A stretch of 64,000 bases of DNA from Escherichia coli (GTDB lineage Bacteria; Pseudomonadota; Gammaproteobacteria; Enterobacterales; Enterobacteriaceae). The notes below the pieces were generated by a model. That model had not been told where the DNA came from. It searched no databases and was given only the letters and a program-made list of their open reading frames with translations. Location: NCBI RefSeq assembly GCF_003018255.1, contig NZ_CP027440.1; one strand, given 5' to 3'. Shown here one piece after another: positions 21,185 through 62,076 of this stretch. The position numbers and the translations under genes are program-made. The first letter of the stretch is position 1; every line of letters begins with the position of its first letter.

Positions 21185-21250
21185 TGTTTGGGTTCAAGAA
21201 TGGCCCCCGTGGTGTTGTCAGGTGCATACCTGCAACGTGCGGGGGTTTTC
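21185..21250 (+). ncRNA. rdl: Rdl-like antisense RNA, copy 1 (boundaries approximate)
   Basis: Plus-strand hairpin GCCCCCG...CGGGGG followed by TTTTCTCT (21203..21249), antisense to the ldr leader; 5' end estimated from the roughly 66-nt Rdl length. Confidence 0.45.
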
Positions 21251-21512
21251 TCTCTCCAGCAAACAATGCCACCAGGGATTAAGCCCCCGCAACATTGCGC
21301 CTCACCGGAACCTTTCCGGCTTGCCGCTGATTCTACGACTGTTTTTCTGCTCCGGAATCCGTCACGTCTTCACTCTGTGCTGCGCATTCCGCAGAATATT
21401 ATCCGCTTGCAACCGTTGCATTTTTCTTACGAAAAAGGCCGCAGAGTTTTATCCCTGCGGCCTGATCCGGGCGCAACTTGCCATTACGGCAGCCTGACGC
21501 CCGTCTGACACG

Positions 21513-21620
21513 TTACTTCCGCTTATTCAGCCAGTTCACGATCATGCTGGCAAGAATGCCAGCAATGACCGGAGCCGCTAAATCATGCCAGAAGGCCATG
21601 CCCAGCTCTGCGAGCGTCAT
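21513..21620 (-). CDS. ldr: Ldr-family type I toxin, copy 2 (35 aa)
   Basis: MTLAELGMAFWHDLAAPVIAGILASMIVNWLNKRK; I18V relative to copy 1. Confidence 0.8.
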   Translation of the reverse strand: MTLAELGMAFWHDLAAPVIAGILASMIVNWLNKRK

Positions 21621-21667
21621 ATAGCCGCCTGAGTTGTAATGACAACGTTTCGCGGCTATTCTTGAAT

Positions 21668-21733
21668 GGTCTAGATGCAAGAATGGCCCCCGTGGTGTTG
21701 TCAGGTGCATACCTGCAACGTGCGGGGGTTTTC
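21668..21733 (+). ncRNA. rdl: Rdl-like antisense RNA, copy 2 (boundaries approximate)
   Basis: Same hairpin and T-tract 483 bp downstream of copy 1. Confidence 0.4.
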
Positions 21734-21995
21734 TCTCTCCAGCAACCAATGCCACCAGGGATTAAGCCCCCGCAACATTGCGCCTCACCGGAACCTTTCC
21801 GGCTTGCCGCTGATTCTACGACTGTTTTTCTGTTCCGGAATCCATCACTTCTTCACTCTGTGCTGCGCATTCCGCAGAATATTATCCGCTTGCAACCGTT
21901 GCATTTTTCTTACGAAAAAGGCCGCAGAGTTTTATCCCTGCGGCCTGGTCCGGGCGCAAATTGCCATTACGGCAGCCTGACGCCCGTCTGACACG

Positions 21996-22103
21996 TTACT
22001 TCCGCTTATTCAGCCAGTTCACGATCATGCTGGCAAGAATGCCAGCAATGACCGGAGCCGCTAAATCATGCCAGAAGGCCATGCCCAGCTCTGCGAGCGT
22101 CAT
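21996..22103 (-). CDS. ldr: Ldr-family type I toxin, copy 3 (35 aa)
   Basis: MTLAELGMAFWHDLAAPVIAGILASMIVNWLNKRK; identical in protein to copy 2. Confidence 0.8.
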   Translation of the reverse strand: MTLAELGMAFWHDLAAPVIAGILASMIVNWLNKRK

Positions 22104-22150
22104 ATAGCCGCCTGAGTTGTAATGACAACGTTTCGCGGCTATTCTTGAGT

Positions 22151-22216
22151 TGTGTAGGTTCAAGAATGGCCCCCGTGATGTTGTCAGGTGCATACCTGCA
22201 ATATGCGGGGGTTTTC
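22151..22216 (+). ncRNA. rdl: Rdl-like antisense RNA, copy 3 (boundaries approximate)
   Basis: Same hairpin and T-tract in the third unit. Confidence 0.4.
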
Positions 22217-22478
22217 TCTCTCCAGCAACCAATGCCACCAGGGATTAAGCCCCCGCAACATTGCGCCTCACCGGAACCTTTCCGGCTTGCCGCTGATTCT
22301 ACGACTGTTTTTCAGCTCCGAAATCCGTCACTTCTTCACTCTGTGCTGTGCATTCCGCAGAATATTATCCGCTTGCAACCGTTGCATTTTTCTTACGAAA
22401 AAGGCCGCAGAGTTTTATCCCTGCGGCCTGATCCGGGCGCAAATTGCCATTACGGCAGCCTGACGCCCGTCTGACACG

Positions 22479-22586
22479 TTACTTCCGCTTGTTCAGCCAG
22501 TTCACGATCAGACTGGCAAGAATGCCAGCTATGACCGGAGCCGCTAAATCATGCCAGAAGGCCATGCCCAGTTCTGCGAGCGTCAT
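22479..22586 (-). CDS. ldr: Ldr-family type I toxin, copy 4 (35 aa)
   Basis: MTLAELGMAFWHDLAAPVIAGILASLIVNWLNKRK; M26L relative to copies 2 and 3. Confidence 0.8.
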   Translation of the reverse strand: MTLAELGMAFWHDLAAPVIAGILASLIVNWLNKRK

Positions 22587-22633
22587 ATAGCCGCCTGTGT
22601 TGTAATGACAACGTTTCGCGGCTATTCTTGAGT

Positions 22634-22699
22634 GGTCTAGGTTCAAGATTAGCCCCCGTGATGTTGTCAGGTGCATACCTGCAACGTGCGGGGGTTTTC
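22634..22699 (+). ncRNA. rdl: Rdl-like antisense RNA, copy 4 (boundaries approximate)
   Basis: Same hairpin and T-tract in the fourth unit. Confidence 0.4.
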
Positions 22700-23061
22700 T
22701 CTCTCCAGCAACCAATGCCACCAGGGATTAAGCCCCCGCAACATTGCGCCTCACCGGAACCTTTCCGGCTTGCCGCTGATTTTACGATTGCTTTTTACCG
22801 TCAGCACCCGGCAATCTTCCTCATTGCGTGATGCCTTCCAGCTTAATTTCTTTATTTGCATTAGTTGCAGTTCATATCCGGGCTGACTCCAGACTGGTAG
22901 TGAAATGCGCAATTTTGTAGAATTGCGCCTCCTCGCGACCTCCCCAGTGAATCTGTTGCCTCATTTTTTACATACTGCGTATTCGACTTCTCCACCTGTT
23001 GCGCAAGAGAAACTGGGTTTATTCATTTTTGCGAGGCCGACTTCTTTCTGGACAGGACTTT

Positions 23062-28384: not shown

Positions 28385-28562
28385 TGCTGCCGGATGGCGC
28401 TGCACGCAGAGGCACAGCGCCACCGGGTATGCAGATTGTTGACAAAGAGCGCTTTGTTTATGCCGGATGCGGCGCAAACGCCTTATCCGACCTACAAAAT
28501 CGTGCAAACTCAATACATTGCAGAGTTTTCGTAGGCCTGATAAGCGGAGCGCATCAGGCAGT
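28385..28562. repeat. REP/BIME cluster in the dppB-dppA intergenic region
   Basis: Several REP-like palindromes: TGCCGGATGGCGCTGCACGC..., GCCGGATGCGGCGCAAACGCCTTATCCGACCTACA, GTAGGCCTGATAAGCGGAGCGCATCAGGCA. Confidence 0.7.
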
Positions 28563-30767: not shown

Positions 30768-30858
30768 TGTGTAGATCGAATAAGGCGTTCACGCCGCATC
30801 CGACAATAAGTGCGGTGCCGTTGCCTGATGCGACGCTGGCGCGTCTTATCAGACCTAC
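30768..30858. repeat. REP element pair
   Basis: GTAGATCGAATAAGGCGTTCACGCCGCATCCGACA and TGCCTGATGCGACGCTGGCGCGTCTTATCAGACCTAC are canonical REP-type palindromes. Confidence 0.65.
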
Positions 30859-30966
30859 GTCGAGTCGAACCTCCCCGCCCCCGGGGGTTCTCTTCCTCAT
30901 GAGCTACAGATGCAAAAAAGCCTGCTCGTTGAGCAGGCTTTTCGAATTTGGTCGGTGATAGAGGAT
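30859..30966. repeat. 108-bp direct repeat, distal copy (hairpin-terminator plus 19-nt tRNA-Pro 3'-end fragment)
   Basis: Near-identical to 31027..31134 at an offset of 168 bp; contains GCAAAAAAGCCTGCTCGTTGAGCAGGCTTTT and TGGTCGGTGATAGAGGATT, then diverges from the tRNA body. Confidence 0.85.
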
Positions 30967-31026
30967 TACTCGCCACTTCGTGGCTCGCCCTGCGGGCCGT
31001 TGCTGGCGCAACGTTCTCTCGCTTCG

Positions 31027-31192
<166 letters not shown>

Positions 31193-31284
31193 GAATGCGG
31201 GGCGCATCTTACTGCGCAGATACGCCCTCGTCAATCCCTTAATAGCAAAATGCCTTTTGATCGGCGAGAAAGTCAGCAGGCCTC

Positions 31285-42382: not shown

Positions 42383-42390
42383 GCACATCA

Positions 42391-42549
42391 ACGGTTTGAC
42401 GTACAGACCATTAAAGCAGTGTAGTAAGGCAAGTCCCTTCAAGAGTTATCGTTGATACCCCTCGTAGTGCACATTCCTTTAACGCTTCAAAATCTGTAAA
42501 GCACGCCATATCGCCGAAAGGCACACTTAATTATTAAAGGTAATATACT
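42391..42549 (+). promoter_or_regulatory. cspA 159-nt 5' UTR (cold-box / RNA thermosensor leader)
   Basis: Sequence from ACGGTTTGACGTACAGACCATTAAAG... to the ATG matches the recalled cspA leader. Confidence 0.75.
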
Positions 42550-42762
42550 ATGTCCGGTAAAATGACTGGTATCGTAAAATGGTTCAACGCTGACAAAGGC
42601 TTCGGCTTCATCACTCCTGACGATGGCTCTAAAGACGTGTTCGTACACTTCTCTGCTATCCAGAACGATGGTTACAAATCTCTGGACGAAGGTCAGAAAG
42701 TGTCCTTCACCATCGAAAGCGGCGCTAAAGGCCCGGCAGCTGGTAACGTAACCAGCCTGTAA
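42550..42762 (+). CDS. cspA: major cold shock protein CspA
   Basis: 70-aa [73 protein letters not shown] with RNP1/RNP2 motifs. Confidence 0.97.
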
Positions 42763-42791
42763 TCTCTGCTTAAAAGCACAGAATCTAAGAT

Positions 42792-42817
42792 CCCTGCCAT
42801 TTGGCGGGGATTTTTTT
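42792..42817 (+). terminator. cspA intrinsic terminator
   Basis: CCCTGCCATTTGGCGGGG hairpin followed by ATTTTTTTATTTGTTTTT. Confidence 0.7.
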
Positions 42818-42949
42818 ATTTGTTTTTCAGGAAATAAATAATCGATCGCGTAATAGAATCTAGTGTTATTTTTGTGAAGAATAAATTTGGGTGCAATGAG
42901 AATGCGCAACGCCGTAAGAAAGGCGGGAATAACTTCCCGCCAAAGTCTC

Positions 42950-43102
42950 TTACTCTTTCAAATTGCAGGCTAAAAATGCCGCCAGCTCATAACTTCCCTG
43001 TTTAATATGCAATTCACACAGTGAATCTCTTACCATCCAGGTAAAAAATAAAAGCGTGAAACAAATCACTATTAAAGAAAGCAATCTATATTTCTGCGGC
43101 AT
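42950..43102 (-). CDS. hokA: Hok-family type I toxin HokA (50 aa)
   Basis: MPQKYRLLSLIVICFTLLFFTWMVRDSLCELHIKQGSYELAAFLACNLKE, a single-TM Hok/Gef-family peptide; ATG at 43100..43102. Confidence 0.8.
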   Translation of the reverse strand: MPQKYRLLSLIVICFTLLFFTWMVRDSLCELHIKQGSYELAAFLACNLKE

Positions 43103-43162
43103 TCCCAGCCTCCTGTGTTGATTTCCAACGAGTAAGAGGCTAACCTTATGGTGTTCAGGCAT
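42950..43162 (-). CDS. mokA: MokA, the N-terminally extended reading frame of the hok locus
   Basis: 70-aa ORF in the same frame as, and ending with, the Hok peptide; analogous to the mok/hok arrangement. Confidence 0.55.
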   Translation of the reverse strand: MPEHHKVSLLLVGNQHRRLGMPQKYRLLSLIVICFTLLFFTWMVRDSLCELHIKQGSYELAAFLACNLKE

Positions 43163-43380
43163 AGGGTAGCCTCACTTTGATTTATAGTCAGGTGGGGCTT
43201 TTCTCTGTCTGCCTTTCGGTGAATACCTGAGACAAACAGTCTCAAGCACCCACAGCTATTCTAGCTTAATAAGTTCGTTTCTTCTCCTTGATATAATCCT
43301 AAAAAAATCTCATAAAATTAATATATGAGACAATCTTTATTCAGCAGAAGATTATTAAAGGTTGCTCTATTATTTAGCGA

Positions 43381-43410
43381 TAAAAAAGCCTGCCAGATGG
43401 CAGGCTTTTT
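43381..43410 (-). terminator. glyQS operon terminator (bidirectional hairpin)
   Basis: AAAAAAGCCTGCCAGATGGCAGGCTTTTT immediately 3' of the glyS stop. Confidence 0.65.
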
Positions 43411-43423
43411 AATAACGGCGTTA

Positions 43424-45493
43424 TTACTGTAACAGCGAAATATCCGCAACGCGCAGGAATAATTCGCGCAGTTTCTCCAGCATGGTAAGACGGTTGATTC
43501 GCAATTCTTTGTCATCAACCATGACCATCACTTTATCGAAGAAGGCATCAACCGGTTCACGCAATTCAGCCAGTTCGACCAGCGCGTCCTGGTAACGACC
43601 TTCAGCGAAGTACGGCTCCAGCTTGTCGCGCAGCACCACAACTTGCATCGCCAGTTTAATTTCTTCCGGCTCTTTCAGAGTAGAAGCATTCACGCGATCG
43701 CTCAGCACTTCGTCAGACTTCGCCAGAATGTTAGATACACGCTTGTTTGCCGCCGCCAGTGACGCTGCCGCATCCAGAGTACGGAAGTGCGATACCGCCT
43801 TCATACGGGCATCGAAATCTGCCGGACGAGTCGGACGACGCGCCAGTACCGCCTGGATGGTATCAACGGTGTAACCTTCGTCCTGATACCAGGCGCGGAA
43901 GCGACCGAGCATAAAGTCGATAACATCATCAACTACGTTGGTATTAGTCAGCTTATCGCCATACAGACGCACCGCTTCTTCGGTCAGCGTTTGCAGATCA
44001 AGGTTGAGGTTCTTCTCAACGATAATACGCAGCACGCCAAGTGCGGCACGACGCAACGCAAACGGGTCTTTGTCGCCTTTCGGATGCTGGCCGATACCGA
44101 AGATACCCGCCAGAGTATCCATCTTGTCAGCAATCGCCAGCGCACAGGCTACCGGGTTAGACGGCAGGTCATCACCGGCAAAGCGCGGCTGATACTGCTC
44201 GTTCAGCGCCACGGCAACATCTTCCGCTTCGCCATCGTGACGCGCGTAGTGCATCCCCATAACGCCCTGGGTGTCGGTGAACTCGAAGACCATGTTGGTC
44301 ATCAGGTCGCACTTGGACAGCAGGCCCGCACGGGTAGCGTGGTTAACGTCAGCGCCAATCTGTTCAGCAATCCAGCCAGCCAGCGCCTGGATGCGGTCAG
44401 TCTTGTCACGCAGCGTACCCAGCTGTTGCTGGAACAGCACGGTTTGCAGGCGCGGCAGGTTATCTTCCAGACGTTTTTTACGGTCGGTGTTGAAGAAGAA
44501 CTCGGCATCCGCCAGACGTGGACGAACGACTTTCTCGTTACCAGAGATAATTTGCTGCGGATCTTTCGATTCGATGTTGGCAACGAAGATAAAGTTCGGC
44601 AGCAGTTTGCCGTCGTTCGCATACACCGGGAAGTATTTCTGGTCACCTTTCATGGTGTAAACCAGCGCTTCAGACGGCACCGCGAGGAATTTCTCTTCGA
44701 ATTTTGCGGTCAGCACAACCGGCCATTCCACCAGCGAAGCGACTTCTTCCAACAGGCTTTCGCTTAAGTCAGCGTTACCGCCAATCTTACGCGCCGCTTC
44801 TTCGGCATCGGCTTTAATCTTCGCCTTACGTTCTTCGTAATCGGCGATGACTTTCCCGCGCTCACGCAGAATTTCCGGATACTGATCAGCATTGTCGATA
44901 GTGAATTCCGGCTCGCCCATAAAGCGGTGGCCGCGAATCACGCGATCGGACTGAATGCCCAGAATGGTAGCCGGAATAACTTTGTCGCCCAGCAGCAGGG
45001 TCACGGTGTGCACCGGACGCACGAAGTGCACGTCGCTTGCACCCCAACGCATCAGTTTCGGGATCGGCAGTTTCGCCAGCGAAGTCGCAACCATATTCGG
45101 CAGCAGTGCTTCAGTGCTTTCGCCCTTCACGTGGGCGCGATACAGCAGCCATTCGCCTTTATCGGTAGTCAGACGCTCAGCCTGGTCAACGGTAATACCG
45201 CAACCACGCGCCCAGCCTTCTGCCGCTTTGCTCGGTTTGCCTTCAGCGTCGAACGCCTGGGCAATCGCCGGGCCGCGTTTTTCGATTTCACGATCCGGTT
45301 GCGCTTCCGCCAGGTTAGCTACTTTAAGCGCCAGACGACGCGGAGCAGCAAACCATTGAACGGTGCCGTGTGCGAGGCCAGCGTTATCCAGCTCCGCAGT
45401 AAAGTTCGCAGCAAAGGACTCAGCCAGGCTGCGCAGTGCTTTTGGTGGCAGCTCTTCAGTGCCGATTTCCACCAGAAAAGTTTTCTCAGACAT
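43424..45493 (-). CDS. glyS: glycine--tRNA ligase beta subunit
   Basis: 689-aa [34 protein letters not shown]..., matching recalled GlyS. Confidence 0.96.
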
Positions 45494-61974: not shown

Positions 61975-62076
61975 TGCCTGATGCGCTACGCTTATCAGGC
62001 CTACATGATTTCTGCAATATATTGAATTTGGTAGAATTTGTAGGCCGGATAAGGCGTTTTAGCCGCATCCGGCATA
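61975..62076. repeat. REP elements between avtA and ysaA
   Basis: GCCTGATGCGCTACGCTTATCAGGCCTACA and GTAGGCCGGATAAGGCGTTTTAGCCGCATCCGGCA are canonical REP palindromes. Confidence 0.7.

Follow-up and report, generated by a model that had tools for sequence, protein, structure and literature searches.

Between cspA and glyS, this Escherichia coli very probably carries the chromosomal hokA/mokA/sokA type I toxin-antitoxin locus as a complete allele free of IS elements, and its predicted regulation resembles that of plasmid R1 hok/sok. This reading draws on homology and predicted folding within the window, the whole 64,000-nucleotide stretch of DNA analysed here (contig NZ_CP027440.1, assembly GCF_003018255.1), whose coordinates are used throughout. 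IS-free hokA/sokA is already known, and this locus is an ordinary representative of the hok/sok family. The open reading frames, family matches, complementarities, and predicted alternative folds come directly from the DNA; from these we infer transcript ends, promoter activity, processing, and killing.

Reading frames and chromosomal setting

The protein-coding features of the region are as follows.

42550-42762, plus strand: cspA, one of the two genes that flank the hokA spacer
42950-43162, minus strand: mokA ORF, 70 aa, ATG start (Pfam PF01848 Hok/Gef, E=6e-23)
42950-43102, minus strand: hokA ORF, 50 aa, ATG at 43102 (PF01848, E=2.4e-23)
43109-43114, minus strand: hokA Shine-Dalgarno (SD) sequence AGGAGG, read in the sequence
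43424-45493, minus strand: glyS, 689 aa, ending at 43424

The hokA and mokA ORFs occupy one frame and end at a common stop, and the 70-aa/50-aa mok/hok frame described in an earlier, sequence-only reading of this DNA is indeed intact. Both products match PF01848 over its whole length; HokA does so (1-42 of 42) at 81.9 bits (cut-off 22), and contains both Cys29 and Cys46. HokA is toxic upon overexpression, and these two cysteines have been linked to toxicity (bioRxiv 10.1101/2025.08.07.668861). Between the mokA ATG and the glyS stop lie 261 bp (43163-43423), in agreement with the earlier estimate of about 260 bp.

The 661-bp cspA-glyS spacer is continuous, and is 100% identical to that of E. 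coli strain 104 (chicken, China; NZ_CP029164). The RefSeq annotation of strain 104 reads cspA(E)-hokA-glyS, with hokA as WP_001135743.1 and with no transposase between cspA(E) and glyS in this identical DNA, which bears out the proposed absence of an IS element. Proper annotation here would comprise hokA, mokA, and sokA, all intact, where RefSeq gives hokA only (strain 104). On the cspA side, the Rfam cspA thermoregulator matches 42390-42817 with 498 bits. The locus is longer than the interval 42950-43423: its 3' UTR reaches to about 42889 and carries two essential RNA elements.

A 23-aa ORF (42902-42973, plus strand), antisense to the hokA 3' end, is the equivalent of K-12 ysaE (b4793). It is intact here, with 5 of its 23 residues unlike those of K-12, and is unannotated in the identical strain 104.

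Leader, antisense gene, and predicted RNA switch

The RNA elements, in order of coordinate, are these.

42889-42901, minus strand: fbi, the fold-back inhibition box, 13 nt, UCUCAUUGCACCC, complementary to tac
42889-43251, minus strand: inferred full-length hokA mRNA, about 363 nt, its 5' end placed by homology and its 3' end from the fbi position
42922-42941, minus strand: GC-rich stem-loop at a terminator-like site, the would-be 3' end of the trimmed, translatable mRNA
43118-43146, plus strand: predicted sokA promoter, by homology; -35 TTGATT (43118-43123), 17-nt spacer, -10 TAACCT (43141-43146)
43136-43173, minus strand: SDmok/dcb hairpin, GAGGCTAACC...GGTAGCCTC, from an Rfam helix, alignment, and local folding
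43140-43136, minus strand: dcb, GCCUC within TAGCCTCTTAC, an invariant arm
43162-43160, minus strand: mok AUG, within the SDmok/dcb hairpin
43173-43169, minus strand: SDmok, GAGGC, an invariant arm
about 43153-43208, plus strand: predicted SokA RNA, about 55 nt, from its fold and the MG1655 sokA remnant, with a putative 5' end
43194-43200, minus strand: ucb (anti-SD box), AAGCCCC, of which AGCCCC is invariant in the alignment
43228-43244, minus strand: candidate metastable hairpin, UGAGAC-UGUUU-GUCUCA, read in the sequence
43241-43251, minus strand: tac, the mRNA 5' end, GGGUGCUUGAG / GGGTGCTTGAG, predicted to pair with fbi (full-length RNA) or ucb (trimmed RNA)
43258-43263, minus strand: predicted hokA promoter -10 box, TAGAAT

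Rfam model RF01794 ('sok') fits the minus strand from 43251 to 43100 at 124 bits (E=2e-29, with a gathering score of 59), over model positions 1-157 of 157. The match starts with GGGUGCUUGAG and stops at the hokA AUG; these bounds and the strand imply that what the model depicts is the leader of the hok mRNA rather than the antisense strand. Eight plasmid hok loci score 79-112 bits with the same model, including 87 bits for an R1-type locus, so that the leader is a very typical family member. The R1-type locus is so called because its Hok is 100% identical to what we take to be the R1 Hok sequence. In an alignment of the window with this locus and two other plasmid hok loci, the named RNA boxes are invariant, and tac is nearly so.

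The window and R1 hok/sok (parB) have the same elements in the same succession: tac, metastable hairpin, ucb, SDmok, mok AUG, dcb, hok SD, hok, 3' stem-loop, and fbi. Fold-back and antisense elements, for which the sequence-only reading advised an alignment to R1 hok/sok, are conserved: tac, ucb, SDmok, dcb, and the 3' stem-loop align with the R1-type locus, and fbi has its counterpart there at a like distance past the stop. The antisense promoter of R1 and the one predicted for hokA both lie opposite dcb, and the predicted refolding between full-length and trimmed RNA is the same. The two differ in location (R1 hok/sok on a plasmid, hokA on the chromosome), in toxin length (50 aa for HokA versus 52 aa for R1), and in the leader, which is about 20 nt shorter in hokA. 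The candidate metastable hairpin is placed as is GAGGC-UUUCU-GCCUC in R1, for which a role in the nascent transcript has been described (PMC9841398).

The hokA -10 box aligns with TATGAT of R1 hok, and is accompanied by a poor -35 region. In R1 hok the last T of the -10 box is at position -7 (PMC9841398); this spacing would put the hokA +1 at 43251, the start of the Rfam match. A consensus promoter scan did not call the hokA promoter, with its weak -35, and the predicted sokA promoter, with TAACCT as its -10, stayed below threshold; both promoters are therefore assigned by homology only. The predicted sokA promoter corresponds position for position to TTGCGC-17-TATCCT in the R1-type locus, and the Sok promoter mutation lies within dcb (PMC9841398).

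We set aside the sole match of the promoter scan (43396-43369, minus strand), which falls within the glyS terminator region. Matches to Rfam STnc370 (a Salmonella sRNA) and several leader families at 43350-43464 are sub-threshold and equate to the glyS terminator hairpin. The STnc370 match (46 bits against a cut-off of 54; 43350-43416, plus strand, and 43377-43464, minus strand) probably reflects shared terminator shape only.

The SDmok/dcb hairpin consists of seven perfect pairs plus two across a 1-nt bulge, and encloses the mokA AUG, with an SD (GAGG) 8 nt upstream. Its minus-strand fold (-15.1 kcal/mol, z=-2.7) is matched by 4 of 200 shuffles, so that the predicted hairpin taken alone is only modestly better than chance. 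A fold that beats its shuffles only modestly might belong to an unrelated terminator or repeat-type palindrome, present by chance in the cspA-glyS spacer. That explanation is scarcely credible: no T-run follows the hairpin, and the terminator scan is silent here; the arms, GAGGC and TAGCCTCTTAC, are invariant in three hok loci from different plasmids; the hairpin is a helix of the RF01794 covariance model; and both the SD and the AUG of mokA lie within it. Alignment and predicted structure support its identification as the conserved SDmok/dcb stem, the Sok target. The sequence-only reading had pointed to a hairpin at the mok start as the place of a Sok-like antisense RNA or of the mRNA fold-back. 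The hairpin is real and holds the mok AUG, and at 43136-43173 it extends one base further than first described. It is the Sok target, with the predicted sokA -10 box and start opposite it, whereas the fold-back element is fbi and lies elsewhere.

In E. coli the loop of this target (43145-43168) exists as two alleles: TACCCTATGCCTGAAC is that of the window, and CCCTCTATGCATAGAC that of loci L007, L009, and L011. These alleles would shift the specificity of the SokA 5' tail along with the target.

In the predicted SokA, an unpaired 5' tail precedes a stem (43169-43198), which is followed by the U-rich tail UUUUCUCU; the RNA folds with -18.7 kcal/mol (z=-2.9). Its 3' part coincides with the annotated sokA remnant of K-12: the 35-nt MG1655 pseudogene b4614, directly after IS150, maps to 43174-43208.

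At the other end of the transcript, fbi lies 48-62 nt past the hokA stop; in 6 of 7 plasmid hok loci the best site is 48-59 nt past the stop. The tac/fbi duplex (-18.9 kcal/mol; RNAduplex, mRNA nt 1-13 versus the 170 nt past the stop) was matched by 1 of 300 shuffles. The two elements covary, with U:A in hokA versus C:G in R1: the pair is GGGUGC/GCACCC in the window versus GGCGCUU/AAGCGCC in R1 and the R1-type locus, and is GGGUGCUCUUGGC/GCCAUAGAGCACCC in Photobacterium and GGGUGCCUGGA/UCCCGGCACCC in Serratia. The stem-loop at 42922-42941 (-17.6 kcal/mol, z=-4.8) aligns with GGCGGGCGCAGGCCCGCC of R1, and a role for this 3' stem-loop in R1 mRNA trimming has been described (PMC9841398). The terminator scan found no intrinsic terminator downstream of fbi, unlike in R1 and in plasmid loci L005 and L013, so that the 3' end given for the full-length mRNA is putative.

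Folding of the full-length RNA (366 nt; -137.9 kcal/mol, z=-7.2) pairs nt 1-12 with the 3' end (tac/fbi) and pairs ucb with SDmok. In RNA trimmed just past 42941-42922, GGG.UGCUU pairs with AAGCCCC (tac/ucb; local fold -26.7 kcal/mol, frequency 0.71), and the SDmok region is released. The SDmok/dcb hairpin is absent from the global minimum-free-energy fold of the trimmed RNA and forms only when folded locally. This predicted folding matches the switch scheme for R1 (PMC9841398). Structure prediction, which the sequence-only reading had named as a check, accordingly has the full-length fold sequestering SDmok and the trimmed RNA freeing it.

These elements suggest a mechanism. A weak promoter (-10 TAGAAT) would direct a minus-strand mRNA of about 363 nt from 43251. 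In the full-length RNA, tac would pair with fbi near the 3' end and ucb would mask the mok SD, allowing neither translation nor antisense binding. Slow 3' trimming to the 42941-42922 stem-loop would remove fbi; tac would then pair with ucb, and the mok SD would enter the SDmok/dcb hairpin (43173-43136). This hairpin could be bound by plus-strand SokA (about 43153-43208), leading to cleavage of the duplex, or else be translated where SokA is absent. Translation of mokA would be coupled to that of the 50-aa membrane toxin HokA.

Since mokA is in frame with hokA and uses its stop, a ribosome that starts at the mok AUG must make a 70-aa protein that contains Hok, and the R1-type locus has a like in-frame arrangement. 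The 70-aa ORF might thus encode a real product, an N-terminally extended Hok isoform, and not a purely regulatory frame. We consider this improbable, because the 20-aa extension is variable (MPEHH, MHRHH, MYRHH) and is frameshifted in an allele that keeps hokA (L010, below), and because the internal hokA AUG has a strong SD (AGGAGG) in front of it. The literature also treats mok as a coupling frame (PMC9841398; bioRxiv 10.1101/2025.08.07.668861).

IS150 and allelic variation

One further feature concerns insertion.

43175-43177: unoccupied IS150 target CTT, filled in many other E. coli

In K-12 MG1655, hokA (b4455), mokA' (b4647), IS150, and sokA' (b4614) likewise lie between cspA and glyS; relative to the window, the hokA ORF is identical at 47 of 50 residues, and the flanks are about 96% identical. 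The annotation places IS150 (1443 bp) between the pseudogenes of mokA and sokA. In MG1655 and a K-12-like laboratory strain, IS150 comes after window position 43134, and on its far side the window sequence is taken up again at 43174. K-12 therefore lacks 39 bp (43135-43173), namely the hairpin 43136-43173 plus one base, and with them SDmok, the mok AUG, dcb, and the sokA -10 and start. No target duplication is present at the K-12 IS150 junctions. The junction sequences point to an IS-mediated deletion, or to recombination between two IS copies. (MG1655 has one extra A between IS150 and the sokA remnant; locus L018, 1133/1134 and 2577.) According to the sequence-only reading, a K-12 IS150 copy disrupts the hokA regulatory region; the element is annotated there in MG1655, but the allele is not a simple insertion, since 39 bp are also lost. 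Alignment with K-12, the check proposed at the time, finds the window without the K-12 junction and retaining 43135-43173. Unlike hokA in the window, K-12 hokA is cut off from its promoter and leader by IS150 and the deletion, and K-12 is an atypical, damaged reference for this locus.

Locus L003 contains IS150 in the opposite orientation, flanked by a duplication of the CTT at 43175-43177. Altogether, three distinct IS150 junctions occupy equivalent places in hok leaders, immediately 5' of SDmok. Two belong to hokA, have opposite orientations, and are at most 4 bp apart (L003, 3914/3915; L002, 3871/3872 and 5315/5316), where the window has an empty site (43174-43177); the third belongs to the hokC leader next to nhaA (L015, about 792). 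Their recurrence suggests an IS150 hot spot or repeated selection; hok/sok loci are listed among mobile-element insertion hot spots in the literature. In H96 (NZ_CP157110.1), the stretch that matches the hokA leader carries the annotation of an IS481-family transposase: a different IS at the same locus.

The locus is present in 5425 of 5426 complete E. coli genomes. The spacer is in one piece in 2830 of the 5426 and the leader (43095-43260) in 2800, making the IS-free form the majority state (about half) and no rarity. The K-12-type junction occurs in 1663 of the 5426 genomes, and the second (L003-type) IS150 junction in up to about 1000 (query count 1047; at most about 960 by subtraction). 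These counts overshoot (2800 + 1663 + 1047 = 5510, versus 5426 genomes), and the second-junction query probably also catches junctions of IS150 with the leader of the paralogous hokC (369 records, 80-90% identity). Identity to the window is at least 99% over the leader in 1061 genomes, and over the whole spacer in only 76 of 5425.

Alleles also differ by point changes. The hok SD is AGGAGG here and in K-12, and AGGGGG in most other intact alleles sampled; HokA residues differ as well, with Val24 here only, and Ile in the other alleles sampled. The IS-free allele L010 (NZ_CP184048.1) carries an A-to-G change in the -10 box (TAGAAT to TGGAAT, at window 43262), a 1-bp deletion (about 43103) that shifts mokA out of the hokA frame, and a G-to-A change in fbi (42894). 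These three changes are likely inactivating; the window allele has no defects of this type. In L012 (NZ_CM135146.1, 154-525), about 390 bp carrying a yidD-like gene are inserted between the cspA terminator and the hokA 3' UTR, just downstream of fbi.

Activity, known relatives, and other RNA features

Pedersen & Gerdes (1999, Mol Microbiol 32:1090, as represented in later accounts) described a hokA/sokA locus of E. coli C that has no IS. It serves as a standard example in other papers, its SokA being encoded in cis and its antisense target spanning about 52 nt. IS-free hokA has also been reported in AIEC strain NRG857c; strains W and Crooks have no chromosomal IS150, so IS-free hokA is implied there. 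The E. coli C locus and that of the window, likened here by description, are the same chromosomal locus without IS150. The window allele is marked by HokA Val24 and by TGT replacing CAC between the -10 box and +1.

Whether such an allele acts is a separate matter. As relayed by a 2026 preprint (bioRxiv 10.1101/2025.08.07.668861), Pedersen & Gerdes 1999 observed neither post-segregational killing nor rifampicin activation with E. coli C hokA, and considered the chromosomal hok loci inactive; the same account extends the two negative results to hokB and hokC. Plasmid stabilisation and rifampicin killing are reported for R1 and reported absent for hokA. The sequence-only reading had suggested that leader and antisense region may be functional. 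All elements are indeed kept in sequence and predicted structure, but the reported failure of E. coli C hokA to kill tempers that suggestion.

The locus could thus be intact in sequence yet physiologically silent, a relic kept by drift and decaying, a reading to which we give somewhat less than an even chance. Besides the reported inactivity of hokA, hokB, and hokC, it would account for weak predicted promoters, the lack of a terminator after fbi in our scan, the tolerance of IS150 disruption in about half of E. coli genomes, and the point-mutational decay in L010 (-10, mok/hok frameshift, fbi). Decay sits less easily with the retention of every RNA element, with at least 99% identity over the leader in those 1061 genomes, and with a preserved fold z-score (-7) and tac/fbi complementarity. 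The HokA peptide is moreover toxic upon overexpression, and repeated independent IS insertions at one site also fit selection against an active toxin. In a converse view, the IS-free allele is a live toxin-antitoxin module and its repeated knockouts arise from selection against a killer or from structure-specific targeting by IS150. The consensus hokA SD (AGGAGG), both cysteines, and the complete set of RNA switch elements speak for a live module, which we nonetheless hold to be unlikely. For R1 hok placed on the chromosome, inactivation of a sokA-type promoter is lethal or selects for suppressors (PMC9841398).

A strain with the IS-free allele would be the right background in which to ask whether chromosomal hok loci act. 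The same background would suit the question of why IS150 keeps landing at one spot in the hok leader.

Elsewhere in the window, four tandem matches to the Rfam rdlD antitoxin (80-90 bits, 483 bp apart) occupy 21186-22700 on the plus strand; by these matches the segment is a four-copy ldr/rdl type I toxin-antitoxin array. K-12 presumably has a single ldrD/rdlD at the corresponding locus. The other above-threshold Rfam matches (30774-31193, 28496-28538, and 61997-62039) are RtT RNA adjoining tRNA, naRNA4, and two ES036 repeats.
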